The notes under the pieces are model-generated. The model was not told the origin of the DNA. It made no database searches and was given only the letters and a program-made list of their open reading frames with translations. The translations under genes were made by a program, and so were the position numbers. Of a DNA stretch of 64,000 nucleotides, positions 2,149 to 53,482 are shown piece by piece. The stretch is from Patescibacteria group bacterium (GTDB lineage Bacteria; Patescibacteriota; CPR2; UBA1875; CAIMLA01): the NCBI GenBank assembly GCA_041738615.1, contig JBGSPL010000004.1, positions 129,203-193,202 of the forward strand, in the 5' to 3' direction. Position 1 is the stretch's first letter; every line of letters begins with the position of its first letter.

Positions 2149-3933
2149 TTATTTCTTGCGTGGTTTGGCGAGAACTTGTTTGCCAATTTCCGATGCGAGA
2201 AAGTAGCCTGTCCGTAGCCAGCCCTTGCGTGGGTTGAATCGGACATTTTGCTTGCCGGGATACCCTGACTTTAGCTGTGACTTTGAACTTAGCACTGACT
2301 CCTGATCAATCTCCGATAAAATTTCGTATTGTAGCTTCTTTTGCCACATATATTTCGGTGCTTCGTTATCTTTCCGCTTGGCCATATTTCTCTTAATATC
2401 CAAAATGGCGGTTATGGTCCAACCCTGTTCATGCTCGGGAGCGAATTGGTCGACAATCTCGCCGTCGCTACCAGTCTTCTTACTTACGTAGTCCAGAATG
2501 GGGTGGCCCTCTTTGTTCACAAAGAAAAATTCGTAGTGTTTACCTGCCATATTGACTCCGTTTAGGAGGCGTGTTTCGAGCTGTTCCGCTAGTCTTGGTA
2601 ACCCTTGGCGACGGAATCCCTTCGCAATCTTGTAGGTGTCGATAGGCCAGCTTACCAGGCTCCCGTGATAGTCTGCCACTGTGAAACCATCGGCATACTT
2701 GAGAGCTCGGGTTCTGATGCCGACGTCGGTAATAAACTCTTTGGAAAACAGCTGTTTGGTGATAGGCGTAATGTATTTTTGTTTTTCCTCTTCGGTGAGG
2801 TCGTCAAACAGCGAGGAGTCCAGTAGTCTGCCGCAGCTAGACTCAAGGGTGGTGACAGGTACCATCTCCCTATTTACGTCTTCTTCGAGACAGCTTATGA
2901 AAAAGTTGTTCTTAGCAGAATACATTTTTTCTCTGGTGTTTATCCTAATTCCCTGGGCTTTATTTCGAAGTTGCTCCGCTTTGTCTTTGTCTGCTTCAAG
3001 CGAAGCAGTAGAATCCAAGGCATCGATACAAAGAGATTGAATCTCGGGGTAAATTATCCGACCAGTGATATTTGCTAGGCTCCCATCGGGTTTCAGAATT
3101 GCGGTTAGAGAGTCCTTCCAGGTTTGTCCAAAATAGTTACCCTTTTTGTTTCGGCGCTCAACCTCTACTAGGCCCTCTGAACCAATATGGGAGGTAATCC
3201 ATCCCGCTGCACCTTCTACGGTATCTCGTATGGTCGCTGTTTCCTGGTCGTTTCTAACGACTTGTTGGTCCAGAATCTCTTCACCGTACAAAGAACAATA
3301 TTTACTAACGAGAAGAAGATAGAGGGGGGTAGAATCGGCAGCAAAGTAGGTAGTTTTCCACTCTGAATCAGAACTTCCTACCCAGGCTCTTTCGACTGCC
3401 TTGCCAATAGTTCTCTGTAGAAATCCACTGCCGTAAGCTTGATTTCTTGACTCGTGATGTATCTTTCCCGGTGACTCCTCTGTCTTTGCATTTTCTTTCG
3501 TGCCTTGTCTTTCTGCGAGTGAAACAATGATTTTAGTCGCTAGTTCCTGGTTGTGCTCTACTACTTCCAGACCAATCTCGGCCGAGTCACGCCCAAAGAC
3601 GGCCTGATCATACTTGCCTTCGGCACTAGCGCTCACACCATTCTCAGTTTCCACCTGTTTTAGTCCCTTGAGGGCGCTTGGCGGCACACACTGAGAAGCA
3701 GGGACTTCTGTCTGGGCAGGCTGCTCTGAAATAGCACCATCATCGCAAATAGTGAGATCTGGCGCCGTCCAGGCAGGTAGGGATTCGCCGGTTTCTACCG
3801 AGGCATGTTCTACTACAGTGGACTCTGGAATAACCTCTCCGTGGGCCTTCATAGCTTCTGCAACTTTCTCTTTGGCGTCAAAATCTGGAGTATTTGCTTC
3901 AGGCAAAGCGGGGTGGTTCTCAGCTAGCATCAC
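2149..3933 (-). CDS. Amylo-alpha-1,6-glucosidase / glycogen-debranching-enzyme-like six-hairpin glycoside hydrolase
   Basis: 594 aa. It contains the VFGRDS motif and overall resembles bacterial and archaeal GDE-family (alpha/alpha)6 barrel proteins. Confidence 0.5.
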   Translation of the reverse strand: MMLAENHPALPEANTPDFDAKEKVAEAMKAHGEVIPESTVVEHASVETGESLPAWTAPDLTICDDGAISEQPAQTEVPASQCVPPSALKGLKQVETENGVSASAEGKYDQAVFGRDSAEIGLEVVEHNQELATKIIVSLAERQGTKENAKTEESPGKIHHESRNQAYGSGFLQRTIGKAVERAWVGSSDSEWKTTYFAADSTPLYLLLVSKYCSLYGEEILDQQVVRNDQETATIRDTVEGAAGWITSHIGSEGLVEVERRNKKGNYFGQTWKDSLTAILKPDGSLANITGRIIYPEIQSLCIDALDSTASLEADKDKAEQLRNKAQGIRINTREKMYSAKNNFFISCLEEDVNREMVPVTTLESSCGRLLDSSLFDDLTEEEKQKYITPITKQLFSKEFITDVGIRTRALKYADGFTVADYHGSLVSWPIDTYKIAKGFRRQGLPRLAEQLETRLLNGVNMAGKHYEFFFVNKEGHPILDYVSKKTGSDGEIVDQFAPEHEQGWTITAILDIKRNMAKRKDNEAPKYMWQKKLQYEILSEIDQESVLSSKSQLKSGYPGKQNVRFNPRKGWLRTGYFLASEIGKQVLAKPRKK

Positions 3934-4969
3934 TCATACCCTCCTTGTCGTTAAATGACTTCAACCTCTGAAGGTAGATGAAACCAAGCCCAAGTGGGGC
4001 CCAGAAATTGAGCCCTCTGTAGGTGATAGAGATGGCAGTAGCACTGATGAGAGGTACACCAAAGGATGTGAATATTAGGACGAGTACGGCTTCTACGGCA
4101 CCTACTCCTTCCGGGTGTGGTGAAACGACACGAACAACCTCTGCAAATACATATCCAGCGATGATAGCACCATAGTGGATATGGATATCGAAAGCTGCGA
4201 AAACCACAAAGAGGGAAGTCACGTTCACGACATGGGCGAGGAGAGCGAAAGCTAGCGTTTCGGCAATCTTTTTGCCATGTCCATAGAGAGCCTCGGACGC
4301 AATAGTGAGCTCACCTACGATATGGGTAGCCCAATCTGCCGGTAGTTTTTTCTGTATTTTTAACTTGTGACAAATGTAGTTGAAAGTTTTTGCTAGAAAA
4401 TTCAAAAAGGAGGTAGTAGCTCGAGTCTTCTTGGTAGCAGTCAGAAGTAGTAAGGGAGGCAGAATAGTGGGAATGACGAAGATAGAGGCGCCAAACACTT
4501 CATAGCTATTTAGTAAACCGGACTTTTGTAGGAAGACGATGGCAAAGATCAGAAGAACAAAAAACGAAGAGTAGCTGGAGACAGTACTCACTAAATATCC
4601 CACCACAGCCTTGGTAGAGGATTCCCTCCTTCTTACAGCATCATCTGCAAAAAGGATAGTACCAGAGTTCCCGGCGGTCGGCGCCAGCGTGTTTACAAAA
4701 AGCGAACCGAGGACGAGAGGGAAGAGATCTTTGATATCCCTCTTTATGTCTACCGTCTCAAACGCCTTTTGGGTCATTAGGGAAAAAATGTAGTAGTAAA
4801 GTACTTGGGTTGCGGCGGCGAGAAGTAGCCAGCGCCAGCTACCCTGAGATAGGGCATTGATTACAGCGAGGAGTTCCTTCCAGTTTATGTAAGCGTAAAC
4901 TAGAAAGGTGAGAAGCAAGGCTCCTAAAAATAATTTTCGTTTAGAAACTTTAAAGTGTAGTATCTTCAA
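3920..4969 (-). CDS. Flippase-like membrane protein (UPF0104 / lysylphosphatidylglycerol synthase TM-region family)
   Basis: 349 aa polytopic membrane protein with a basic N-terminus. It overlaps the downstream glycosidase by 14 nt and the upstream GT2 by 20 nt, consistent with an operon. Confidence 0.5.
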   Translation of the reverse strand: MKILHFKVSKRKLFLGALLLTFLVYAYINWKELLAVINALSQGSWRWLLLAAATQVLYYYIFSLMTQKAFETVDIKRDIKDLFPLVLGSLFVNTLAPTAGNSGTILFADDAVRRRESSTKAVVGYLVSTVSSYSSFFVLLIFAIVFLQKSGLLNSYEVFGASIFVIPTILPPLLLLTATKKTRATTSFLNFLAKTFNYICHKLKIQKKLPADWATHIVGELTIASEALYGHGKKIAETLAFALLAHVVNVTSLFVVFAAFDIHIHYGAIIAGYVFAEVVRVVSPHPEGVGAVEAVLVLIFTSFGVPLISATAISITYRGLNFWAPLGLGFIYLQRLKSFNDKEGMSDAS

Positions 4970-5678
4970 GGCTAAACCTGTTTAGATGTCTCTTGTAGAG
5001 ATAGCTCAGACTCACCATATTTAGGAACTGCAGGCCCACAAGGAATATTGGGAAAGCGCGAAAAATATTGAATACCATAAGGTAATCTGCAGCGACACCC
5101 TCCCAGTACGTCATTTTTTCACTTTTTGGTGTGGCGTAGAGGTTTGGTAGATGGACACTAATGAAGGTCTTGCCGCGCTTTAGAAAAGAGTCGTTCATCA
5201 GTACTTCTAGGCCGTAGCCTATTTCGGGTTTGCACCAAATTTCTCTATCTAGCAGCAGTTCCTTTCGAATAGCACGTTCTCCGCTTACAAAATCCATTCG
5301 GAATAGCTTGTATATGAGTGATGAGTTGCCACGATAGCTTATGGTCCAGTCGACCTTGTTTTCGATGACTGGCGAAGCCAAATCGGTAATATTCTGTTCG
5401 GTCAATCCTTTGAGATCGGCATCTAGAAGCACTACGACATCGTATCGGGCTTGTTTAATGCCGCTACGTATAGCCATCGTCTTGCCCTGAGAAACTTTCT
5501 TTTCGATAACTTTCGTATGAAAAGTCTTCGCAATGTCGATCGTCTTGTCCGTAGAACCATCAGAAACAACTATCACCTCGCCTACGAGCGGATGTTTGCA
5601 AACCGGTTTCAAGACGTTTGCCAATCTCGGTTCTTCATTTTTTGCGGCTATAATTACGCTTACTTTATTGTGATGCAT
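4950..5678 (-). CDS. Family 2 glycosyltransferase (GT2, dolichyl-phosphate glycosyltransferase-like)
   Basis: N-terminus VSVIIAAKNEE...VIVVSDGSTD...LLDADL (DXD). The ORF extends to 5708, but a perfect TATAAT lies inside that extension 10 nt upstream of the ATG at 5678 (MHHNK...), suggesting a near-leaderless start there. Confidence 0.65.
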   Translation of the reverse strand: MHHNKVSVIIAAKNEEPRLANVLKPVCKHPLVGEVIVVSDGSTDKTIDIAKTFHTKVIEKKVSQGKTMAIRSGIKQARYDVVVLLDADLKGLTEQNITDLASPVIENKVDWTISYRGNSSLIYKLFRMDFVSGERAIRKELLLDREIWCKPEIGYGLEVLMNDSFLKRGKTFISVHLPNLYATPKSEKMTYWEGVAADYLMVFNIFRAFPIFLVGLQFLNMVSLSYLYKRHLNRFSLEDTTL

Positions 5679-5772
5679 TATGGGTAGTATTATAGCGGAA
5701 AACGGCAATAATTGTTACTAGTTTGCCAATATACTCAGAATATTGTCAGAATTATTGTATAATGATTATAAG

Positions 5773-7074
5773 ATGAAAATAGCCTACCTGACAGATACAT
5801 ATCAGCCAGAAGTAAATGGAATTGTAACGAGTATTACAAATTTCACTACACGTCTTGCGGAGGCAGGCAATGAAGTACTGATTATAGCCCCCAAGTACAA
5901 TCGCAAAAAGGACCAGCCGATACCGAACATCACTATCAAGCGCTACGCCTCGTTTTCCTTTGCGACCAACAAGAACACCCATATCGCATACCCAGCTCTT
6001 TTGGGCATCATCCGGGATCTCCGTGAATTTAAGGCGGATATTGTCCATGTCCAAACCCCGATGAGTATAGGCGTCTCCGGTGTAATCGCAGCCCGAATAC
6101 TCGGGATCAAGCTGGTCCAGACCTATCATACCTACCTTCCCGACTTTATGGTTTATGTGAACCCCTATAACCTGCTTGGGGTGGGCAAGGCATCGGAGCT
6201 TGTTACAAGCTCTCGAGTGTGGAAGAAGATTATCGAGTCGAATGCAGTGGAGAAATTCGCTACCTTCGGAGGTGATACCCTAAAACGTTCGGAGGTGGTG
6301 CGGGCAATCAATAAGCAACTTCGTAGGACCCAGAAGTACCGTGATGGGAAAACAGTCTCGGACCGATTTGCTTGGGATTTTACTCGCATTCTCTATGGCA
6401 GGTCAGACATCGTATTTTCACCATCGATTGCCCTCGCAAAACTACTTACCAGACACAGGGTGGGCGTTCCTAGTATAGATATGAGCAACGGCATAGAATT
6501 TCACCAATTTGCCAAGAAGAAGGATTATCACATTCGCAATAAGATGATTTACGTGGGGCGACTGGGCTTAGAAAAGGGCGTAGATGTTGTCGTGAAAGCT
6601 TTCGCTATTGCCAGAGAGAAGAATCCTGCACTGCGCCTTGACATCTTTGGCGAAGGACCAGCAAAAAAGGAACTGGAAGTGCTCATCGCGAAGCTAGGGA
6701 TCGGTGAGAGTGTTGGGTTTGTTGGTTTCGTGACCCGGCCTACCATCAAAAGGGCGCTCAAGCAGCACGATTTCTTTGTGACGGCTAGTACTATGGAAAC
6801 CCAGGGGTTAGTAATCTTAGAGGCGATGGCCGCAGGCCTTCCTGTGCTCGGTGTCGATGCCCTCGCGGTGCCTGAGCTCGTGCACGATGAGCAGAATGGC
6901 TATCTGGTGAAGCCTAGGGATCCGAAAGAGATGGCCGAGGCTATGCTGAAGCTTACCGAGAGTGCCGCTAGAAACAAAAAATTCGGCCAAAAATCTCTGG
7001 AGTTTGCCGAAGTTCATGATATTTCGAATTGTGTTACAAAGCTGGAATCTGCCTACAAGAAACTATTGTCTTAG
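5773..7074 (+). CDS. Family 4 glycosyltransferase (GT4, retaining, EX7E motif)
   Basis: Starts MKIAYLTDTYQPEVNGIV. The C-terminus reads ...METQGLVILEAMAAGLPVLGVD...DEQNGYLV. The ORF opens at 5743, but an extended -10 (TGTATAAT, about 5750-5760) argues for the start at 5773. It is divergent from the GT2 operon. Confidence 0.7.
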   Translation: MKIAYLTDTYQPEVNGIVTSITNFTTRLAEAGNEVLIIAPKYNRKKDQPIPNITIKRYASFSFATNKNTHIAYPALLGIIRDLREFKADIVHVQTPMSIGVSGVIAARILGIKLVQTYHTYLPDFMVYVNPYNLLGVGKASELVTSSRVWKKIIESNAVEKFATFGGDTLKRSEVVRAINKQLRRTQKYRDGKTVSDRFAWDFTRILYGRSDIVFSPSIALAKLLTRHRVGVPSIDMSNGIEFHQFAKKKDYHIRNKMIYVGRLGLEKGVDVVVKAFAIAREKNPALRLDIFGEGPAKKELEVLIAKLGIGESVGFVGFVTRPTIKRALKQHDFFVTASTMETQGLVILEAMAAGLPVLGVDALAVPELVHDEQNGYLVKPRDPKEMAEAMLKLTESAARNKKFGQKSLEFAEVHDISNCVTKLESAYKKLLS

Positions 7075-9330: not shown

Positions 9331-11604
9331 CTACTGATTAAATTTGTATAGAGCACCGTCGGCAAAGACGTAAACTGTTTTGTTGGCATCATCTACCGAA
9401 ACGCCGCTAATATTCTTTAGTGTGGCGCCATTGTATTGACCGATGTACTTACCATTTGTGTCGGCACGGACTATAGATCCACTATTCGTCAGGTAAATCC
9501 CCGTAGTGTCTTCGTTCGCGAAGTTGCTACTGATGCCACTGAGGGTCAGAGGAAGGTCATTGATGCTGTAACTTTGCTTCTTACCGCCCAGATACTTTAC
9601 GGTATCCCCGTTTTTCTTAGTGGCATAAACGTTGCTATCGATTGCTAGCGCAATGGTATCTTTTGCCGTGCTGCCATCGGTAATGTAGGCAGTGCGTGCC
9701 GAGTATCCTGTAGAAGTTTTGGTTCTTTTGTAAATCTGGCCTGCCGCATCAACAGTATAGATATTTGTTGAGAAAGAGGCCATGGCTGTAGGTACTTCCA
9801 TGTCTCCAGCAATCGCTTGTTTGGTCAGAGTAACGTCTTTAACGTCAAATTCGTATAGGGCGCCTTTGTCGGTAAAGAGGACGATGGTGCTTCGGACCGT
9901 GACGGCTGTGACAGCGGCAACTTTGCCTTCTAGCTTTGGCTTATCGAGCACGTTTGAGGCTTCGCCGGCAAGGCTTACGGCTGCGATGCTCCCATTGTCT
10001 TTACTTATGATGTAGGCATTCTTCCCGATTACAAAAGGTCCAAAGGTATTTTTGCCTGTAATGTTTGTCGTGTCCGCTAGCTTACTAGTAGTCACTCTGG
10101 TGATTGCAAGGACTCCGTCTAGTGCGCTGTTGATATCTTTCTCTAGTGTAGAGACTCTGTCTTTTAGTGAAGGATTAGATTCTAGTCCTTTTGCGATACT
10201 AAGAGCACTATTTAGGGTATTTGCCGACTTGCCTCTATTGCCGCTTGCAGCTTCAGCCTTACCGATCGTGAGCTTGCTTTGAGCCTCTGTATAGCTCGCT
10301 TCTGCTAGTTTTTGGTGCTCTGCGTTTTCGCGCAATCTCCAGACGGCAAAGACACTGATGATAAGCACAAGCGCTAGCGCGGATGCGGCAATCAGTAGGT
10401 TTCTCTTATTCCCTTTGTTCTTTTTCAGTTTGTCGCCGAGTCTGTCCTTTAGTTTACCAGCATAGCTAAAGTCTATCTTCTCGAGCTTCAGCCACTTGGG
10501 TTTATTGTGGGATTCTTTAATGTGGATTACATTCCCGCTAGCCTTGGTAGTCTCTAAAAAGCTATTGGCGTGCTCGTTTACGGTAATATCAGAAAAATCA
10601 GCGGGAGCTTCACTAACCTCAATCACTTCTTTCGGCTTCTCAAGGGCCGCTGGCCTCTCCTTTTTCGATTTAATGTTTTGGCCGCCCTTGGTAATCAAAC
10701 CCGAGAGAGCGTCATAGGCGTCTAGAGTAGTGTCGTGAATCCAGGGCCATGCGCTTGCGACAATAAAGCCAGTCATTGCCTTCCAGCCTCGTCGGGTATA
10801 GTAGATGGCTTTCTGGGCAAAGGGAGCCGAGCGCTCAATCACGGTTTCCATCGGTTTATTTGGTTCAGTAAGCCAGACTTCATCATTAATCTCAGTAACA
10901 GTCTCTTCACTCGCGGCCTCTGGGGTGATGGCCTCAATAATAAGGATCGAGTTTGGCTGCATCTCTGTATTGTTACCTTCAAGTAGGTCGGCCAGGTGGC
11001 TTATCGCAATCTTTGGCTGGAATTCCTCGACATACTTTTGGAGTTCGTCTTTGGAAATATGGAAGAAGACTCCTGGAGTTACGGCAACAATCTTGTCTCC
11101 TTCTAGTAGGTCACCAGAGGCAATATTGGTAAAAGTTCGCAGCGGATTGATGTTATCACCGGCCAGCTCACGAGTGATGTGGCTTGATTTACCCCCTCGG
11201 TAGAGATAGGCTTCGGCTTTTCCTGTCTGGGTAATATGGATAGTATCACCGGTATGAACGGCAAGAATCGCATTCAGATTGTTTAGCCAGTGGATGTTGC
11301 CATTGTGGGTAATGTCAGCAAGCTCCTCGTTGACTCTGGCGAGAGCGGCCTCGAAGCTAGTGAGCGGATCTTTCTCGAGGTCTTGGTAGTATTCACCAAA
11401 AAAAGCGTCAACAATCAGTTCGGCGACCTCTTCGGCGCTAGCCGCAGGTGCGTTTACATTTACTAACGCATATATAGAACCATGATTACGTTCGTCGACA
11501 TCATTGGGATTGTGCTCATAGGCAATAGCTATGCCTTGATGCCGTCGGCTCCTCTTGGATTCACTCAAAAGTTTCGCTGTGCGCGCAATTAATTTTTTAT
11601 GCAT
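9331..11604 (-). CDS. Hypothetical single-pass membrane protein, 757 aa; the N-terminal cytoplasmic domain may be a degenerate PP2C-like fold, and the C-terminal extracytoplasmic part is a repeat-rich beta region
   Basis: A TM segment sits around aa 400. The stretch AILAVHTGDTIHI...AEAYLYRGGKSSHITRE loosely resembles the PP2C GDSRxYLxR region, but the DGMGG metal-binding motif is absent. Confidence 0.35.
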   Translation of the reverse strand: MHKKLIARTAKLLSESKRSRRHQGIAIAYEHNPNDVDERNHGSIYALVNVNAPAASAEEVAELIVDAFFGEYYQDLEKDPLTSFEAALARVNEELADITHNGNIHWLNNLNAILAVHTGDTIHITQTGKAEAYLYRGGKSSHITRELAGDNINPLRTFTNIASGDLLEGDKIVAVTPGVFFHISKDELQKYVEEFQPKIAISHLADLLEGNNTEMQPNSILIIEAITPEAASEETVTEINDEVWLTEPNKPMETVIERSAPFAQKAIYYTRRGWKAMTGFIVASAWPWIHDTTLDAYDALSGLITKGGQNIKSKKERPAALEKPKEVIEVSEAPADFSDITVNEHANSFLETTKASGNVIHIKESHNKPKWLKLEKIDFSYAGKLKDRLGDKLKKNKGNKRNLLIAASALALVLIISVFAVWRLRENAEHQKLAEASYTEAQSKLTIGKAEAASGNRGKSANTLNSALSIAKGLESNPSLKDRVSTLEKDINSALDGVLAITRVTTSKLADTTNITGKNTFGPFVIGKNAYIISKDNGSIAAVSLAGEASNVLDKPKLEGKVAAVTAVTVRSTIVLFTDKGALYEFDVKDVTLTKQAIAGDMEVPTAMASFSTNIYTVDAAGQIYKRTKTSTGYSARTAYITDGSTAKDTIALAIDSNVYATKKNGDTVKYLGGKKQSYSINDLPLTLSGISSNFANEDTTGIYLTNSGSIVRADTNGKYIGQYNGATLKNISGVSVDDANKTVYVFADGALYKFNQ

Positions 11605-12453: not shown

Positions 12454-12702
12454 ATGTATACAAGAATTGATAAAAAGATAAAAACGATAGCCCTTTTTGA
12501 AAACGGGAAGGTAATTCCGAAGATTTTTCGCTATGCAAACCGTGACTACAAAGTAAGGGGAATCAGCCTAGCTTATCAGGAACGGGAGGGTCGGTCGGTA
12601 AATTACTATTTTGGTATTGAGACCGATGAGGGCGGTGTCTATAAGCTTCATTACAACGACGAGAAACTCACCTGGTGGTTGGACGAAGTATGGCAAGATT
12701 AA
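12454..12702 (+). CDS. Hypothetical small protein (82 aa) immediately upstream of dinB and overlapping it
   Basis: Globular-looking sequence with no TM segment. Its stop overlaps the dinB start by 13 nt, suggesting translational coupling. Confidence 0.45.
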   Translation: MYTRIDKKIKTIALFENGKVIPKIFRYANRDYKVRGISLAYQEREGRSVNYYFGIETDEGGVYKLHYNDEKLTWWLDEVWQD

Positions 12703-13904: not shown

Positions 13905-13909
13905 AAATG

Positions 13910-13938
13910 TTGACGGCACATTCCCCGAGGTTTATATT
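13910..13938 (+). promoter_or_regulatory. Near-consensus promoter TTGACG-17-TATATT
   Basis: It lies directly after the dinB stop and opens GC-rich island B. Confidence 0.5.
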
Positions 13939-13945
13939 AACGATA

Positions 13946-14534
13946 CGCTGAAAGACCTGAATACTCGGAATTAGGGTTATCTAAGCGTGTTCCTAGACCC
14001 CTGCAACCGCAACTGCCTTTTGTTAGTAGCATGTGCCGACGCCGGGAGAACGTGTAGGAAAAACAAGATATTGCTGCGAGATCAACACCTCTCCGAGTGG
14101 GTGGGTTTCTCGCAAAGCGGGACTTTGCATTTTAGGCCGCTGGTAACTCGACTAACGAGTGGCCCACGCCGAAACGAGGGTGCACCCCTAGTCCATTGGG
14201 GCCTCGTGTTGCATTAAAGTCCAAGTCTATAACGTACCAGCATCTGTTCAGGTACCACTTGTAGGCGCATGTCCTGGTCGAAACGCTGCATTACTGCTGT
14301 CCTAGAGGCGGTAGGGGTGCAAGATCACTGATCAGGCAAGATAAGGTGCCATTAAGGCCCATATAGTACAGTCGCGTAATATCGCCACGAAGCAGAGAGC
14401 TCGGGCGCGGAGGCTGTCAGCGGGAACCGATTGGTACAAAGCTAGGCCGGCATGGTTGACCGTTACTGTGGTCACTTTGCCCTCGTTCGCGGATTTTGTA
14501 CCGCGATCACGGGGGCCATGCCGGCCCCTTTCAT
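13946..14534 (+). ncRNA. Candidate structured ncRNA 1 (about 590 nt, class unknown) in island B
   Basis: It is bounded by the promoter at 13910-13938 and the terminator at 14511-14534. GC is about 58%. There is no SD-led ORF. Multiple stable hairpins are present. Confidence 0.4.
14511..14534 (+). terminator. Intrinsic terminator (GGGGCC-AUGCC-GGCCCC followed by UUUCAU)
   Basis: 6 bp GC stem plus a U-run, ending 14 nt before the next -35 box. Confidence 0.55.
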
Positions 14535-14547
14535 GACTACAAACGCC

Positions 14548-14576
14548 TTGACAAAAAGGCTTTACGGGCGTATAAT
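14548..14576 (+). promoter_or_regulatory. Perfect consensus promoter TTGACA-17-TATAAT
   Basis: The sequence ttgacaaaaaggctttacgggcgtataat was read directly. Confidence 0.6.
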
Positions 14577-14583
14577 TCATTTT

Positions 14584-15138
14584 CGTGCATGACATCAAGT
14601 CTGCACATCCAAGGGGGGACGGCGCCAGCAGTAACGAGCAAGCGGTGAAGGGGGCGCCAGGATTGGCCCACGTGACGGACTCGTCCGTTATGAAAGGCTC
14701 TGCCGTCAACCAAGCAAGCGTGACGACAGGGTTCTGCCAATCTTTGAGGCATCGAGGCACGAAGCCCCACTTGGCGGATCTCACCGGTATGATACGGTGA
14801 GAGACGAATATTCTACGCCTATGGCGTATGCACCATATCGCAATTGCGATTGCCCCTCCTTGGAAGGGCTTAGAGGGAGAGAACCTCTAAGTGGGACGGT
14901 TCGAAACCGTAGGGGGCGCCAGAACCTCCGCGTGAGTTAGGCCGCAAGGCTGTTTCTCGCGCTCATAGGCGAGCTGGATATGGATAAGGGTCCACAAGCA
15001 TTCTAGCAAACTAGACCTCATCCCACTGTTCAGCGCCCATCAGTCCCCAGACTGATGGTTCGGGAGTAATCCCAAAGCACGGCTCGGAGTCCTTCGTGGG
15101 TACCAGTACCACAACGAAGGCCTTCGGGCCTTTTCATT
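14584..15138 (+). ncRNA. Candidate structured ncRNA 2 (about 555 nt, class unknown) in island B
   Basis: It runs between the perfect promoter and a strong terminator. It contains a T-arm-like hairpin ACGG-TTCGAAA-CCGT. The only ORFs are GC-driven and have no SD. Confidence 0.4.
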
Positions 15139-15139
15139 T
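15116..15139 (+). terminator. Intrinsic terminator (AAGGCC-TTCG-GGCCTT followed by TTCATTT)
   Basis: GC stem with a UUCG tetraloop and a T-run. It abuts the 3' end of the convergent methyltransferase gene. Confidence 0.65.
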
Positions 15140-15144
15140 ACATT

Positions 15145-15873
15145 CTATTTGTCTGGCTTTATCGCTATGGCAATGAGGTTTGGGTCTTTTTTACCATCAA
15201 CTCTTTTCTCAGCACTAGAGAGGATTTTTATTGCGGTAAAACCGGCCTTCTGTAATTCGTTTATGGTTTCTTTCTTAGTCCAGGCATGAAAATAACGTTT
15301 AGTCATAATATTTTTATGGACGCTCTTCCATGGCATCAGAAAGTCTCCATAATCGAGTCTGGATCTGCCGGCGGTAATTCGAACGCTTTCTTTTACTATT
15401 TCTTTTAGGTATTTTGGTTCGTTCCAAAAATACCAATTAGTAATTATTATTTTGCCACCTGGTTTTGTAATTCTAAACACTTCATTCAGGGCTTCCCTTC
15501 GACTTGCCTTCCCCGGTAGGTGGTGAAGAGTAGCCACTGAAAGAGTAAGATCGAAGGAGTCATTTTTGTAAGGAGTTTTTAAGATATTGCCAACCGCGAA
15601 ATTACCAGTAGGATACTTGGTTTTTGCAATTTCGATTAGCTTGTCACTAAGATCAATCCCAAAGTAGTTTACCTTATTGTCTATGAGCTCGTAGATTCTG
15701 CCACTACCGCACCCCAGATCGGCGATTTTGAAATTATCTGCAGATTTGATTTCGGAGAGCAGTTTCTTAAGGCTTGGCCAGTTGTATTTCCGCGTGCTCG
15801 CAAAGTGATGCGCAATCAGGTTATAATCATCACGGGTTTTGTCTATTAAATTTTGAGCAGTTTGTTTATTCAT
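15145..15873 (-). CDS. Trm9/ALKBH8-type tRNA (carboxymethyluridine34) methyltransferase homolog (class I SAM MTase)
   Basis: Block-wise similarity to yeast Trm9: DYNLIAHHFASTRKYNWP vs VYNEIAPHFSQTRYKPWP; DLGCGSGR vs DVGCGNGK; SVATLHHLPGKASRREAL vs SIAVVHHWSTRERRVEV; KPGGKIIITNW vs RQGGQALIYCW; DFLMPW vs DVFVPW. Confidence 0.7.
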   Translation of the reverse strand: MNKQTAQNLIDKTRDDYNLIAHHFASTRKYNWPSLKKLLSEIKSADNFKIADLGCGSGRIYELIDNKVNYFGIDLSDKLIEIAKTKYPTGNFAVGNILKTPYKNDSFDLTLSVATLHHLPGKASRREALNEVFRITKPGGKIIITNWYFWNEPKYLKEIVKESVRITAGRSRLDYGDFLMPWKSVHKNIMTKRYFHAWTKKETINELQKAGFTAIKILSSAEKRVDGKKDPNLIAIAIKPDK

Positions 15874-17443
15874 GAATGTAAAAAAAGAAATTATTTATAA
15901 TCTTATCGCAGGAAGGGCACGGACTCGGGCTGATTTTCGGCGTGTCGTGGCTTCAGTGTATAGAGATGATAACACGAGCGGGTATCATTCGAACATTGAT
16001 TTGCGCGAAACTTATGACGAAATGATAGTGAGCGACGGGATCGATGTAGACGAGAATATCGAGAAGCTCCTAATGACCAAGAAAATGCGTTCGCTGTCCG
16101 GGGTTTCCGTAATTACCGTCCTTACGAAGCCCTATCCTTGCCCCGGGAAGTGTATTTATTGTCCCAGTATTGTCGATGTGCCAAAAAGTTACTTGCCCGA
16201 TGAGCCAGCGGTAATGCGCGCCATACTAGCGGGTTATGACGCTAAAAAGCAGGTAGAAACCCGGCTAAAGTCACTAGTTCGCCAAGGTCATCCGGTAGAT
16301 AAGGTCGAGCTGATTGTCATTGGCGGAACCTTTAGCCACCTACCCCGCAAATATCAGGAAGAGTTTATAAAGGATTGCCTTGATGCTCTAAATGGGGTAG
16401 TTTCGAAGACTCTAGCCGCGGCCAAAGCTCAGAATGAGACCGCAGATTCACGTTGCGTGGGCCTGACTCTAGAGACGAGACCAGATCATATAACCCCAGA
16501 GGAAGTAGTGTGGTTTCGCTACCTCGGTGCAACCAGGGTTGAGCTAGGAGTCCAGACGGTATTCGATGACATTCTAAAGCTAAATGGTAGGGGGGAAAAC
16601 GTTGAGGCCACGGTTGAGGCAACTCGGCTACTTAAAGACGCTGGTTTCAAGATATGTTATCATCTGATGCCAAACCTCTATGGTTCTGACTTGGCTCGAG
16701 ATAAAGAGATGTTCCAAATAGTCTTCACTGACCAACGTTTCAAACCAGACTACATCAAGATTTATCCCTGTATGGTGATGGAAAGTACACCGCTTTATGA
16801 TCTTTGGAGGAAAGGAAAATACGTAAGCTACACCGACGATGAGCTGATAGAGCTAATCTGCGAGATAAAGAAAACTGTGCCATATTGGGTCCGAATCATG
16901 CGCACCATTCGTGATATCCCGGCACCAAATATCGAATCGGGGTCCAAGATGTCAAACATGCGTCAGATTATCTTACAGAAAGCAGAGCAAGAAGGTTGGG
17001 CATGTAACTGCATTCGTTGTCGGGAGATTGGCGCTAAGGCACAGGAGGAAGCAGCAGGAATCGCTCAATTTGTTGAGGAGTATCAGGCTAGTGAGGGCAA
17101 GGAATATTTTCTCAGCTTCGAGGATAAAGATAGAAGGAATCTCTACTCCTTGCTGCGGCTACGAATCCCCGGCACTAGCGAGATAGGGGAAGCTTTGCCT
17201 GAAATAGCAGGGTGCGCTTTGATTCGAGAAGTCCATACGTACGGACAACAGATTGAGATTGGCGAACAGGGAGATACGCAACACCGCGGCTACGGCAAGA
17301 AGTTGGTTGTCGAAGCTGAAAGAATAGCTAGGGGTAATGGATACGAAAGGGTAGCTGTTATTTCTGGGGTTGGTGTCCGTAGCTATTACCATAAGTTTGG
17401 CTACAAACTTAATGGCGAATACATGGTGAAAACACTCGACTAA
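15872..17443 (+). CDS. Elp3-family tRNA uridine34 carboxymethyl-transferase homolog (radical SAM domain plus C-terminal GNAT)
   Basis: Radical-SAM CPGKCIYC motif. The overall length and domain order match ELP3 (COG1243). The C-terminal acetyltransferase motif is QHRGYGKKLVVEAERIA. It is divergent from the Trm9-like gene with a 2 nt overlap of start codons. Confidence 0.75.
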   Translation: MNVKKEIIYNLIAGRARTRADFRRVVASVYRDDNTSGYHSNIDLRETYDEMIVSDGIDVDENIEKLLMTKKMRSLSGVSVITVLTKPYPCPGKCIYCPSIVDVPKSYLPDEPAVMRAILAGYDAKKQVETRLKSLVRQGHPVDKVELIVIGGTFSHLPRKYQEEFIKDCLDALNGVVSKTLAAAKAQNETADSRCVGLTLETRPDHITPEEVVWFRYLGATRVELGVQTVFDDILKLNGRGENVEATVEATRLLKDAGFKICYHLMPNLYGSDLARDKEMFQIVFTDQRFKPDYIKIYPCMVMESTPLYDLWRKGKYVSYTDDELIELICEIKKTVPYWVRIMRTIRDIPAPNIESGSKMSNMRQIILQKAEQEGWACNCIRCREIGAKAQEEAAGIAQFVEEYQASEGKEYFLSFEDKDRRNLYSLLRLRIPGTSEIGEALPEIAGCALIREVHTYGQQIEIGEQGDTQHRGYGKKLVVEAERIARGNGYERVAVISGVGVRSYYHKFGYKLNGEYMVKTLD

Positions 17444-44623: not shown

Positions 44624-47600
44624 TTGGCACAAAGGCCACGATTCCTGAAAGCTAGAAGCTATTGCAAGAAAGCAGTAAGTGCATGTTCTGCTATATTTGG
44701 ATTGGCTATAGTTCGGGCTCTTACCTTCTTCATCGACAAGGCTCGGGTGTGGCGCTTTGAACTGACGTACAAGCTTCACCTCAAGGTTCGCTCAGTACAT
44801 GACAACTTGGTAGTGAAGAACGTTATTTATCGTAAGGTTACGGAAAATAAGTATGCAGTGCCGGTGCGAAATGCTACAGCTTCTGCCTTTGTTGTATCTC
44901 TAATGCTGTTTACTACTATTCAATATATATTGCCACAGTTCAATCTATTAGCTCCAGGTCAAGTTTATGCCGGGTCAAATAATAAGACGTGGACAACCAA
45001 AGCAGACTTCGAAACCGCAGCAACAAATGCGGGAGTGACAATCGGGGGTGATAATGACGCGAATGATGCAAATAACAACGATAATACTAAGCTTCAGGCT
45101 ACTTCAAACTGGTCCCAACCGTCTAACCCAACGGCTGGCACGGACACCACGTATTCTACTGCCGTGGATGGCGAATTTGTTTATATAGGTGGATTACAAT
45201 ATGTGGGCCAAGCTCCAGATTTAATTAATGGTGATTATCAGTGGAGAATTGAAAAGAGAAATATATCAGACGGTACTTTGGTGTGGGCCCAGACAGAGAA
45301 TAACGGTGGTTACTATGACTATGTAAAGGATATATTCGTTTCAGGGAGTTCGCTCTACTTAGTGGGTATCGGTTCAGGGGCAAGTAATAATGATACAAAA
45401 TGGGTAATAGAAAAAAGGAATATCTCAGATGGTGGATTAGCTTGGACACGGACTTACAATCCTTCAACTGGAAACGATGTCCCAATGTCAGGGGCTACTG
45501 ATGGATCCTGGATATATGTGGGGGGTCTCGATAACTCTATGTCTAATAACCCCGCTTGGCGGCTAGAAAAAATCTCCTCAGTGGATGGTTCTTTATCAAC
45601 AGCTGTTACGGTTGATATCAGTACTGGCGTGACTTCGTACGAGTCCATCACTGGTGTTGCTGTGTCCGGTGGGTACGTTTATATAGGTGGATACGGTGGT
45701 TCTGCGAGTAATTCCTTTGGGAGAATACAGAAAAGAAATTCGAGTAACCTGGCTTTGACAATTGGTACATGGACTGTTGACTCGGACCCAACCACCGGTA
45801 ATGATGGCATACAGGATTTAATTATTGACGGTAGTTTTTTATACGTTGGCGGTTATTCAGGTGCCAATTATAGATACGAAAAACGTAACATGACTACCGG
45901 GGCCCTTGTTTACGGCCAGAATATCACACCAACAGGAACGAATCCTAATGTTAATATGATGACCTCGGACGGAACATATTTTTATACTTCCGCAAGTTCA
46001 ATAGGGACATTCCCTACCTATTACTACATTATTGAGAAGAGGCTTCTCTCGGACGCCTCTCTTGTCTGGACGATTACTGGTAAGCCATGTCGCGGAATAA
46101 CTTTTTCCAACTCAAGCCTTTTTACGGCTGTTACCAACACTGGTGGAGGAGGTGATTGGCTTACGGAGAGAATGTCAGATGCCAATGGCTCGGTAACAGC
46201 CTTTAATACCCCTGGTAACCTAGGTTCGAGTGTTACATCCGCGGTTGGTCTCCGTTATGATTCAGGAATTGGTAATACCGCTAAGGCGTCTACGATTTCG
46301 TTGACAGGCACAACGGCCTCGAACAACCAGAAGGTAAAGCTCAAGGTTCGTTCTGGTGATACTCAAGGAGAACTAGACACCTCTTTCTGCTATGGTCCAA
46401 CCTCCACAGGTTCTGGCTGTAGCGATTGGAGTACGGCGGGATCATTCTTTTATCAACAGCGAGTAGCGGGCGTAGAGACCTCTTCGACGACCGGTATATT
46501 AAATACAATCCCAGCCAAAAGATTTATAGAAGTTCTAGTTCGTCTAGAATCAGACGGATCGAATACACCTGTCTTAGACAGAGTTGATCTGGGGTATAAC
46601 TATCTCGACGCCCCAATTGCCCAGTTAGCGAAGAGACTTAGCGGCACAACCGACATACCTTATGACACTTACACTAATGAATCAGGATTTGTTGAAAAAT
46701 ATTTCGCCCAAGGCTTTAACAGCGGGGAAACACTTTATCCAGAAATTGAAGTAGTGTCTCAAGGTGCGTCATTTACTGGCACTGGCACAGTTGGCCCAGG
46801 AGTTTTGTTAACCCCAGGAAATTATGCTAATCCTGTGGAACTTGCTGTTACTAAGAACGGATTAGCTCCAGGCAATTATAAATTTAAGGTTCGGACCTCC
46901 GACTCCACGGGGCGCATAAGTGCATGGTCTACAAACGAAGTACTTTTCCGTATCGAACAAGAACTGCCTACCGGTTCAGTTACCATTGGCGGGTCAAATG
47001 TCACGGGCGGATATGCGAAGTCGAGAAATGTAGTTCTTAGCTCGACGGTTAACGACACAGGGGGCTCAGGTCTGGGACAGATGCAATTTGCAAATAAACC
47101 CGCAATTGATGGGGACCCCCTAGTTTGGTCAGGGTGGGAACCGTATAGTACTAGCAGGGTTTGGGCACTTTCAGCTGGAAATGGGGCAAAAACTGTCTAC
47201 GCCCAATATCGGGATAATGCAGGAAATGTAACTAATACCTGGGCACAGACTAGCCAGGCTGATTTTCAAGGCGGACAAACCTCAGGGAACGCCAGTGTTA
47301 CTAATACCCCCGGAACTATCAAGCTAGTAGGAGGAGTGCAGACCACTATAATAAGGCCAAACGGTCCTGGAAACTATAGCCAATGGTCGCAGAATCCGGC
47401 AACGGGGCAAAACTGGGACAAGGTTGATGAGGTTGTAAATAACCAGGGGGATTATGTACTTGGAGGCGGTAAGGACCTCTATAATTTGCAGGATCCCGCC
47501 CTAAGCAACGTAACAATTACAGGAGTTAACATCTACGCAGACGCTTTCGGCTCGGATGATTGCGGAGGTTGTTCGTCGTTGATTTCTTTCGGTATCTATG

Positions 47601-53380: not shown

Positions 53381-53406
53381 ATCAATAACCTTACTAAAGA
53401 TTCCCT

Positions 53407-53432
53407 AAAACAAGCACTTTTGTGCTTGTTTT
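53407..53432 (+). terminator. Intrinsic terminator, copy 2 of the repeated hairpin motif
   Basis: ACAAGCAC-tttt-GTGCTTGT followed by TTTTAG. Confidence 0.65.
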
Positions 53433-53482
53433 AGGGACGGAATGAGCTTAAAATTAATACATAACCATAAGAGGGAGGGAGC

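Follow-up and report, generated by a model that had tools for sequence, protein, structure and literature searches.

In eukaryotes, the Elongator complex (Elp3) acts ahead of Trm9-Trm112 (ALKBH8 in animals) to give mcm5U34 and mcm5s2U34, and the two genes described here belong to the same two catalytic families. In the literature searched, the mcm5U pathway is described just for eukaryotes and some archaea. In Sulfolobus solfataricus, the genes for Elp3 and Trm9 form a cluster; Haloferax volcanii has Trm9-Trm112 and documented mcm5U; and archaeal Trm9 orthologues were reported solely for Sulfolobales and Halobacteriales (2017 review). As for bacteria, no homologue of the methyltransferases that partner with Trm112 was detectable (2017 review), and biochemical evidence of xcm5U derivatives was lacking for all bacteria (2020 review). 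According to reviews, one of them from 2020, Elp3 is rare in bacteria or limited to Dehalococcoides; a first, sequence-only reading of this DNA was accurate in calling orphan bacterial Elp3 genes known. Searches for Trm9 or Elp3 together with Patescibacteria or CPR, and for MnmG together with CPR, returned nothing relevant in the portion of the literature searched. Here, we analyzed a 64,000-nt stretch of a Patescibacteria group bacterium (hereafter, the window) containing a divergent pair of genes. We propose, with a probability of roughly 0.7, that the pair is a two-gene bacterial module in which Elp3 would make cm5U34 and a Trm9-like methyltransferase would esterify it to mcm5U34.

Layout of the locus and the Elp3 gene

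Both ORFs have the coordinates and lengths given in the sequence-only reading, and the 2-nt overlap of start codons that it described was confirmed as a tetranucleotide common to both genes. The pair and the features of Elp3 are as follows.

15145..15873, minus strand: Trm9-like class I SAM methyltransferase, predicted cm5U34 carboxyl O-methyltransferase (242 aa; PDB, signature residues, AF2, linkage)
15871..15874, no strand: CATG, divergent start codons sharing 2 nt (sequence; same layout in the closest relative, L105)
15872..17443, plus strand: Elp3, radical-SAM and GNAT, predicted to carboxymethylate tRNA U34 (523 aa; TIGR01211, PDB, Pfam)
15872..16075, plus strand: N-terminal extension of Elp3, aa 1-68 (kept from Met1 in CPR homologues)
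16139..16162, plus strand: radical-SAM [4Fe-4S] motif CPGKCIYC (CxxxCxxC), aa 90-97 (motif check)
17003..17020, plus strand: three-cysteine Zn motif CNCIRC of bacterial/archaeal type, aa 378-383 (motif check)
17279..17296, plus strand: GNAT acetyl-CoA binding motif QHRGYG, aa 470-475 (Pfam, PDB, motif check)

Some gene callers place the Elp3 start later, giving 495 or 498 aa. Because the N-terminus is kept from Met1 across homologues and the TIGR01211 model was matched from residue 7, the 523-aa reading and the start overlap stand. The N-terminus of the methyltransferase is likewise conserved from Met1, and the two genes also abut start to start in another locus, L110. Beside the methyltransferase, an ORF-free stretch of 1.24 kb had no Rfam match at E ≤ 1, a Pfam scan of ORFs from it gave no match, and its similarity between subgroups was almost nil.

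Elp3 matched NCBIfam TIGR01211 with 579.3 bits against a cutoff of 350, residues 7-522 aligning to model positions 2-522, and its Pfam domains were Radical_SAM, Radical_SAM_C, and GNAT. The score for Pfam Acetyltransf_1 was 20.5 bits, slightly below the cutoff of 20.7; in the PDB search, the GNAT domain aligned in full to the KAT domains of DmcElp3 and MinElp3. The best PDB match of the whole protein was Dehalococcoides mccartyi Elp3 (DmcElp3, 5l7j; E 2.3e-128), and archaeal MinElp3 (E 1.6e-125) and eukaryotic Elp3 (about 1e-100 to 1e-108) were also matched. The SAM-binding GGTF was located at aa 151. All of the Fe-S, SAM, Zn, and acetyl-CoA motifs were intact and were found in 120 of 120 homologues; bacterial and archaeal Elp3 proteins keep the three-cysteine Zn motif, which is not conserved among their eukaryotic counterparts (PMC6367351). 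The full ELP3 architecture claimed at first reading, a radical-SAM CxxxCxxC motif plus a C-terminal GNAT domain, is thus present, and the loss of catalytic residues that would have spoken against that reading is not seen; Elp3 is a complete member of its family. The first 31 residues carry eight K/R versus two D/E. The extension is the counterpart of the basic N-terminus with which archaeal and eukaryotic Elp3 bind tRNA and which is missing from DmcElp3 (PMC6367351).

These features bear on a reading in which bacterial Elp3 yields no free cm5U intermediate, or serves another process, and the pair forms some other modification, neither cm5U nor mcm5U. The 2020 review has no direct evidence of xcm5U34 from bacteria and gives the in vitro activity of DmcElp3 as weak, and the NCBI product name for the Elp3 family refers to the cmnm5 modification. 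[quoted passage not shown] We consider this reading improbable.

The methyltransferase and its Trm9-type residues

Searching the PDB with the single methyltransferase sequence gave Yarrowia Trm9 (5cm2_Z) as the top match, with an E of 1.2e-16 against 5.6e-10 for the next. With the family profile, 5cm2_Z again ranked first (1.2e-28, 103 bits; runner-up, 83 bits). The AF2 model (pLDDT 92.6) showed a Rossmann-type strand order, and Foldseek with this model placed 5cm2_Z first as well (E 2.9e-17, TM 0.82), the identity to YlTrm9 being approximately 24% over the structural alignment. In the model and the alignment, an extra helix at aa 153-167 lies between beta5 and the beta-hairpin; fungal Trm9 has no such helix. 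A fungal Trm9 HMM scored the window methyltransferase at 94.9 bits and the family at 50-126, versus at most 34 for generic methyltransferases; reciprocally, the family HMM gave 111-148 bits for fungal Trm9 and 44-88 for generic methyltransferases. The protein is a member of a bacterial family comprising 1,402 clusters at 50% identity (E ≤ 1e-30). P0044-type matches were excluded from this family, being weak (E about 1e-11, 39% coverage) and lying in polysaccharide clusters without Elp3.

Alignment with fungal Trm9 located the following features in the methyltransferase.

15778..15825, minus strand: Trm9-type N-terminal helix motif Y17..IA.HF.STR28...W32, aligning with VY..IA.HFS.TRYKPW of fungal Trm9
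15706..15720, minus strand: SAM-binding motif I, DLGCG, aa 52-56 (alignment)
15652-15654, minus strand: D74, motif II acidic residue, ScTrm9 D72 (alignment)
15520..15525, minus strand: H117-H118, ScTrm9 H115/H116, of which H116 is essential (alignment)
15433-15435, minus strand: W147, ScTrm9 W145 (alignment)
15328-15330, minus strand: W182, ScTrm9 W168 (alignment)
15289..15297, minus strand: R193-Y194-F195, ScTrm9 R241-Y242-Y243, with R kept and Y243 changed to F (alignment)
15178-15180, minus strand: N232, ScTrm9 N271 (alignment)

In the N-terminal motif, R28 and Y17 are identical to R29 (essential) and Y18 of ScTrm9, respectively. Collinearity with named fungal Trm9 sequences extends over Y..IA.HF.STR...W, motif I, HH, W, PW, RY.H, and the C-terminal N. 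The likeness to Trm9 suggested at first reading therefore held far beyond what chance would give, with collinear motifs and PDB E-values of 1.2e-16 and 1.2e-28. On these alignments and searches, the methyltransferase is Trm9-like, with Trm9 as its best solved relative.

Eight residues of ScTrm9 are essential by experiment, namely, R29, D72, H116, W145, W168, R241, Y243, and N271 (PMC4678810). A role in binding the carboxylate of cm5U and the uracil ring was proposed for R29, H115/H116, R241, N271, and W145, H116 positioning the carboxylate (PMC4678810). The window methyltransferase has seven of the eight in identical form (R29, D72, H116, W145, W168, R241, and N271), and thus possesses Trm9-type active-site residues. 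The eighth, Y243, is replaced by F195; this is a conservative change that keeps the aromatic ring, and the yeast Y243A variant retains about 10% activity (PMC4678810). Among 190 family members, the essential positions were 87-100% conserved, except for that of Y243, which was Y in 48%, F in 27%, and another residue in 25%. H117 (ScTrm9 H115) was 85% conserved, and DLGCG and D74 were invariant. A signature score over 10 positions, with F allowed at that of Y243, was 9.1-9.9 for the family, 9.0 for fungal Trm9, and 1.9-3.1 for generic methyltransferases, which share with Trm9 just the SAM-binding residues among the essential ones.

Other family assignments were also considered. Many family members are named as UbiE/COQ5/MenG-type by JGI. 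The window protein scored 47 bits with TIGR01934 (cutoff 158) and 20-46 with PRK00216 models (cutoffs 216-351), and its match to Pfam Ubie_methyltran was limited to the shared Rossmann half; this assignment was rejected. The BioC/ArsM-type was likewise rejected with scores far under the NCBIfam cutoffs, and so was CmoM, being absent from the best 25 of 34 NCBIfam matches and from the PDB matches. Pfam and NCBIfam gave generic methyltransferase matches alone, below equivalog cutoffs. In a neighbour-joining tree (201 columns), nearly all family members grouped with fungal Trm9 and were separated from 12 of the 13 generic methyltransferases, with a bootstrap value of 4%. As the deep nodes are unsupported, we do not claim a clade of Trm9 and the family. 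The tree is too weak to decide the grouping alone; HMM scores and signature residues set the protein apart from unrelated small-molecule methyltransferases, with which the first reading had said it would group if the Trm9 assignment were wrong.

The same data raise the question of whether the Elp3-linked methyltransferase acts on another target, such as a different tRNA or rRNA nucleotide, another Elp3-derived side chain, Elp3 itself, or a small molecule, its likeness to Trm9 reflecting ancestry rather than substrate. Consistent with this are the purely generic database matches, the F at a position that varies within the family, the additional helix, the unsupported deep phylogeny, and the failure to find Trm112 nearby. 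However, the conserved residues are those proposed to contact the cm5U carboxylate and uracil ring, which generic methyltransferases do not have, and the 90% linkage to Elp3, from which Trm9 receives its substrate, also argues against another target. We regard it as unlikely, yet as the most serious alternative to the Elp3-Trm9 module.

Linkage with Elp3 and other candidate partners

The linkage was examined in 42 non-redundant family members from metagenomes, which form 38 clusters at 70% identity. A divergent Elp3 gene lies immediately upstream in 38 of these loci, or 34 of the 38 clusters; at the other four loci, Elp3 is absent within 5 kb. Control loci, taken from the contig search with the single methyltransferase and holding generic methyltransferases of 26-40% identity, had no divergent Elp3 in that position (0/18). 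Conversely, when Elp3 was taken first, the methyltransferase was present in two of three cases. The pair is retained where the neighbouring genes differ (locus L023), and it also occurs in high-GC, non-CPR-like bacteria, so that the linkage is independent of lineage. With 38 of 42 relatives against none of 18 controls, the functional linkage between Elp3 and the Trm9-like protein proved stronger than the sequence-only reading had stated, and the adjacency is not due to chance. The same gene pair was found in dozens of uncultured bacterial lineages, a recurrence that points to a bacterial version of the mcm5U pathway.

The closest relative, L105, keeps the CATG start overlap. Between L105 and the window, the body of the methyltransferase gene differs while the flanks are about 79% identical; in the genome of the window, a different member of the family has apparently taken the place of the methyltransferase. 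Such replacement in situ, with the flanks kept, indicates selection to keep the function beside Elp3. Substitutions in Elp3 relative to L105 numbered 47, 40, and 266 at the first, second, and third codon positions, respectively, and this concentration at third positions indicates purifying selection. It could be argued that the two genes are neighbours by chance, or that they are nonfunctional remains, either in decay or newly acquired by transfer, since the pair does not fit textbook accounts of tRNA modification in bacteria and the L105 methyltransferase was missed by NCBI's pipeline. Neither ORF of the pair is disrupted in the window and the catalytic residues are invariant, the missed L105 gene is an intact ORF of 234 aa, Elp3 is under purifying selection, and the linkage persists in 34 of 38 clusters in several gene contexts. 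This explanation is effectively refuted by conservation.

A crude motif scan covering the window and about 0.93 Mb of related loci found no Trm112-like Zn-knuckle, Pfam Trm112p had no match among the window ORFs scanned, and clustering of neighbours revealed no recurrent small Trm112-like gene beside the pair. Outside the two giant ORFs at 44624-62776, nearly every ORF of 400 aa or more in the 64-kb window was compared with Pfam, and none matched MnmE or MnmG.

In some relatives, Elp3 is paired with or fused to an Asn-synthetase-like PP-loop enzyme. This partner is a candidate ncm5U synthase, which would amidate cm5U to ncm5U. The enzyme for the ncm5U-forming step is called 'yet unknown' in the literature, and a search for ncm5U with asparagine synthetase and Elp3 gave nothing relevant within the part of the literature covered.

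Proposed pathway and comparison with known systems

In the proposed module, Elp3 would work alone, as in archaea, its radical-SAM and acetyl-CoA/GNAT domains putting a carboxymethyl group on C5 of tRNA U34 to give cm5U34. The Trm9-like methyltransferase would then use SAM to form a methyl ester on the cm5U34 carboxylate, yielding mcm5U34, and 2-thiolation encoded elsewhere in the genome might follow. We infer these products and tRNA substrates, as well as activity free of Trm112 and a replacement of MnmE/MnmG rather than coexistence with them. Against the module stand the change of Y243 to F, the neighbour-joining clade without bootstrap support, the generic Pfam and NCBIfam matches, the lack of Trm112 nearby, and the four unlinked loci of 42. 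More tentatively, Patescibacteria and at least one high-GC lineage may decode with xcm5U34 instead of or beside MnmEG, a stand-alone Elp3 being served by interchangeable linked finishers: usually a Trm112-independent Trm9-like methyltransferase giving mcm5U and, in some lineages, an adjacent or fused Asn-synthetase-like PP-loop enzyme giving ncm5U.

The data presented here reveal, in the candidate phyla radiation and in bacteria outside it, a large Trm9-like family with tight linkage to Elp3, where the 2017 review found no bacterial homologue detectable. If the module is active, mcm5U-type wobble chemistry would be no hallmark of eukaryotes and archaea, and a minimal two-protein, probably Trm112-free pathway would be open to expression and study in E. 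coli. An active module would also bear on decoding accuracy in ultra-small genomes and help to trace, by phylogeny, where the Elongator pathway came from. The fusion of Elp3 with the Asn-synthetase-like enzyme in relatives provides a concrete candidate for the unidentified enzyme converting cm5U to ncm5U.

Among bacterial proteins, DmcElp3 resembles the window Elp3 in its bacterial host, its stand-alone nature, and its place as the best solved-structure match. It has no N-terminal extension and binds tRNA weakly, whereas the Elp3 in the window is extended by 68 aa, basic at their start; the literature searched makes no mention of a Trm9 partner for DmcElp3. MnmE/MnmG (with MnmC) are a functional analogue modifying C5 of the wobble U34 in the same tRNA class, but are unrelated enzymes that use GTPase, FAD, and folate chemistry with glycine or ammonium to form cmnm5, nm5, and mnm5. 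CmoM, a gamma-proteobacterial class I SAM methyltransferase, esterifies a U34 side-chain carboxylate, converting cmo5U to mcmo5U; its partners are CmoA and CmoB, not Elp3.

The archaeal Elp3 and Trm9 are alike in the stand-alone Elp3, its basic N-terminal extension and Zn motif, and the clustering of the genes; the module described here differs in occurring in bacteria, where its methyltransferases make up a large separate family (1,402 clusters at 50% identity). With the eukaryotic pathway, it shares the architecture and motifs of Elp3 and the Trm9 residues R29, D72, H115/H116, W145, W168, R241, and N271. The eukaryotic Trm9 needs Trm112, whereas no Trm112 was found near the window methyltransferase, which also differs by its approximately 24% identity to YlTrm9, F at the position of Y243, and the extra helix. 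Further differences from the eukaryotic pathway are the bacterial host, an Elp3 without Elp1/2/4-6 that keeps the Zn-cysteine motif, and the pairing of the two genes.

Arrangement of the gene pair and identity of Elp3

The sequence-only reading had placed two divergent open reading frames (ORFs) at this locus, and its coordinates for both matched the window exactly. A tmRNA is encoded in the same window.

15145–15873, minus strand: Trm9-like methyltransferase (MTase), ORF of 242 aa
15872–17443, plus strand: Elp3, ORF of 523 aa
1239–1634: tmRNA

The proposed 2-nt overlap of the start codons was also found, as CATG at 15871–15874, in which two bases are common to the divergent starts. Some gene-calling pipelines gave a shorter Elp3 of 495–498 aa. 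The long form was supported by conservation of residues 1–25 from Met1 among homologues, by the NCBIfam ELP3 model, whose alignment begins at residue 7, and by the same CATG arrangement in the closest relative of the locus, L105. The N-terminus of the MTase was likewise conserved from Met1.

The host is a bacterium, as shown by the tmRNA and by genes near the pair (SmpB, ArgRS, PheST, DinB, BipA, and L,D-transpeptidase). The closest named Elp3 homologues belong to Patescibacteria, and relatives of the locus are carried on contigs of 0.64–0.96 Mb, a usual size for genomes of the candidate phyla radiation (CPR). Two ORFs of 757 aa (9331–11604, minus strand) and 82 aa (12454–12702, plus strand) had no Pfam match and were syntenic in L019, L022, and L105, between ArgRS and DinB. 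Further along, two giant consecutive ORFs (44624–53380 and 53483–62776, plus strand) encode 2,918 and 3,097 aa.

The 523-aa protein is a member of the Elp3 family and, as had been claimed, a full Elp3: it scored 579 bits against TIGR01211 (cutoff 350), and the motifs CPGKCIYC, GGTF, CNCIRC, and QHRGYG were intact. All 120 listed homologues had the Fe-S, Zn, and acetyl-CoA motifs. The best solved structures were Dehalococcoides mccartyi Elp3 (DmcElp3; E = 2.3e-128) and archaeal MinElp3 (1.6e-125), followed by eukaryotic Elp3. Unlike DmcElp3, the window Elp3 has an N-terminal extension of 68 residues, the first 31 of which form a basic stretch, similar to the extension through which archaeal and eukaryotic Elp3 bind tRNA (PMC6367351).

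Similarity of the methyltransferase to Trm9

In Pfam and NCBIfam, the MTase matched only generic class I methyltransferase models and reached no equivalog cutoff. Four independent lines of sequence and model comparison, namely structure matches, catalytic residues, a signature score, and HMM cross-scores, tied it to Trm9 and bore out its proposed assignment as a Trm9 homologue. First, the Yarrowia Trm9 structure 5cm2_Z was its top solved relative in a single-sequence query (1.2e-16; next 5.6e-10), in a 28-sequence family profile spanning almost the whole protein (1.2e-28, 103 bits; next 83 bits), and in Foldseek with the AlphaFold model of the MTase (E = 2.9e-17, TM 0.82; pLDDT 92.6).

Second, alanine substitution of R29, D72, H116, W145, W168, R241, Y243, or N271 abolishes or strongly reduces the activity of yeast Trm9 (PMC4678810). 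When the MTase was aligned collinearly with named Trm9 proteins from fungi, its equivalent residues were R28, D74, H118, W147, W182, R193, F195, and N232; thus, seven of the eight were identical and Y243 was conservatively replaced by F. H115 and Y18 of yeast Trm9 were conserved too. Among 190 family members, the key positions were 87–100% conserved, except that of Y243 (Y 48%, F 27%).

Third, a signature of ten positions, in which F was allowed in place of Y243, separated the groups cleanly: it gave 9.1–9.9 for the family, 9.0 for fungal Trm9, and 1.9–3.1 for generic methyltransferases, whose score came from SAM-binding residues only. Fourth, the fungal Trm9 HMM gave 50–126 bits for the family and at most 34 for generic methyltransferases, and the family HMM gave 111–148 bits for fungal Trm9 and 44–88 for the generic enzymes. 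The topology of a neighbour-joining tree was consistent with this similarity, but its deep nodes had no bootstrap support, so the assignment is based on the four lines above.

The MTases of seven further metagenome loci (L072, L076, L077, L082, L085, L096, and L070) scored 102–135 bits with the fungal Trm9 HMM, above the CPR family, and showed the full signature apart from the aligned N271; no Elp3 was found within their contigs. They are possibly orthologues of Trm9, of archaeal or eukaryotic origin, that bridge both groups.

The source annotation of the homologues P0002–P0033 was inconsistent across databases. JGI gives the name 'ubiquinone/menaquinone biosynthesis C-methylase UbiE' to most members and 'tRNA (uracil-5-)-methyltransferase TRM9' to a few, and NCBI labels family members 'class I SAM-dependent methyltransferase'. 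The L105 MTase gene is intact yet uncalled by NCBI. Patescibacteria Elp3s are named as such by NCBI.

Linkage to Elp3 and probable replacement of the methyltransferase in place

An exhaustive profile search (E ≤ 1e-30) gave 1,402 clusters at 50% identity, which makes the MTase family a large one. When metagenomes were scanned with an alignment of 63 sequences, 80 loci were obtained; linkage was counted over family members that scored at least 180 bits and had 400 nt or more of sequence upstream. A divergent Elp3 lay immediately upstream of the MTase in 38 of 42 such loci, compared with 0 of 18 generic-methyltransferase loci, in agreement with the physical pairing proposed earlier. The 42 loci were non-redundant (42 clusters at 90% identity), and the ratio was 34/38 by cluster at 70% identity and 17/20 at 50%. 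Four good family members (L038, L043, L063, and L075; 201–279 bits) had no Elp3 within 5 kb upstream; hence, the linkage is strong, not universal. In L023, the pair was kept amid different neighbouring genes. At least 18 MTases and Elp3s from two homology searches had a contig-length fingerprint in common, some on contigs of only 3.8–6.3 kb. In the converse test, started from three Patescibacteria Elp3 genes, one had the MTase adjacent, another had it beyond a single inserted gene, and the third had no MTase within 4 kb. Just downstream of the MTase, a protein of about 90 aa weakly similar to EF-Tu domain 2 (PF03144, E = 0.002) was encoded in 12 of the 80 loci (for example, L055, 5958–6230, plus strand); the window has no counterpart.

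A divergent MTase subgroup (L074, L078, L084, L087, L088, L095, L098, and L103; family HMM 118–158 bits, 99% bootstrap clade) is likewise found next to a divergent Elp3. The GC content of its contigs was 57–68% in five of six inspected (L088, 36%), and its neighbours were bacterial (peptide deformylase Def, TrmB, RNase PH, FabH, and solute-binding proteins), indicating that the module extends beyond CPR. In L078 and L087, the MTase is adjoined by TrmB, of the tRNA m7G46 MTase family.

Between the window and L105, Elp3 was 86% identical, and the DNA of both flanks was about 79% identical. The MTase gene body (window 15145–15775, L105 7352–7904) had no nucleotide match, and its protein was 49% identical. 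Over 18 same-contig pairs, the identities of Elp3 and MTase to those of the window were uncorrelated (r = −0.08), and the three closest MTases (63–68%) were paired with Elp3s of merely 63–66% identity. These comparisons are most simply read as an exchange, beside Elp3, of one family member for another, which speaks for selection of the function at this site.

An ORF-free stretch adjoins the MTase.

13905–15144: ORF-free stretch of 1.24 kb between DinB and MTase
14548–14576, plus strand: perfect sigma-70 consensus promoter (TTGACA-17-TATAAT, 12/12)
15119–15130: GGCC-TTCG-GGCC hairpin just past the MTase 3′ end

The stretch was 77–79% conserved with L105, and its substitutions showed no period-3 pattern (101/105/99 by phase; Elp3, 47/40/266). 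It had no Rfam match at E ≤ 1, no tRNA, no Pfam match, and no ORF support. In L105, a 107-nt tRNA (6829–6935, plus strand; Rfam 43.6 bits) comes after the same promoter; ARAGORN, with the intron option and not by default, identified it as tRNA-Asp(GUC) interrupted at position 37/38 by an insertion of 36 nt. The window lacks this tRNA, and about 200 nt at that place cannot be aligned; one possibility for the stretch is an unknown ncRNA, another a decayed tRNA locus.

Predicted pathway and comparison with known systems

In the best-supported model, Elp3 would form cm5U34 on tRNA and the Trm9-like MTase would methyl-esterify it to mcm5U34 as the predicted product. In Trm9, R29, H116, and R241 are proposed to hold the carboxylate of cm5U, H115 and N271 to read the uracil ring, and W145 to stack (PMC4678810), and these are the residues conserved in the MTase family. 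A search of the window and of 0.93 Mb of related loci revealed no Trm112, and the MTase is possibly independent of it. MnmE and MnmG were not found within the window and may be absent from the rest of the genome as well.

In some Patescibacteria, the partner of Elp3 is an Asn-synthetase-type PP-loop protein, not the Trm9-like MTase. The L111 gene (263 aa; 3226–4017, plus strand; PF00733, 128 bits; SGGVDSS motif) is co-directional with Elp3 (4001–5710) and overlaps its start by 17 nt. In P0150 (816 aa), a complete Elp3 carries the same domain as an N-terminal fusion, and the L111 and P0150 versions share 46% identity. The enzyme converting cm5U to ncm5U is 'yet unknown' (PMC6367351). As carboxylate adenylation and amidation are the chemistry needed, the PP-loop protein is a candidate for it; a literature search gave no link between an Asn-synthetase-type protein, Elp3, and ncm5U.

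According to reviews, direct evidence for xcm5U in bacteria is lacking. A 2017 paper found bacterial homologues of the Trm112-partner methyltransferases undetectable. A 2019 paper called DmcElp3 'a rare example' of bacterial Elp3 (PMC6367351), and a 2026 paper placed Elp3 in 'numerous bacteria'. Our full-text literature search gave nothing relevant on Trm9 or Elp3 in Patescibacteria or CPR. The mcm5U pathway is well known from eukaryotes, for archaea it has been predicted or demonstrated in part, and in Sulfolobus the Elp3 and Trm9 genes cluster as the pair does here. Considering this literature and the partial database labelling, what is new relative to the eukaryotic and archaeal pathway is the bacterial host, the gene linkage, and the possible independence of Trm112.
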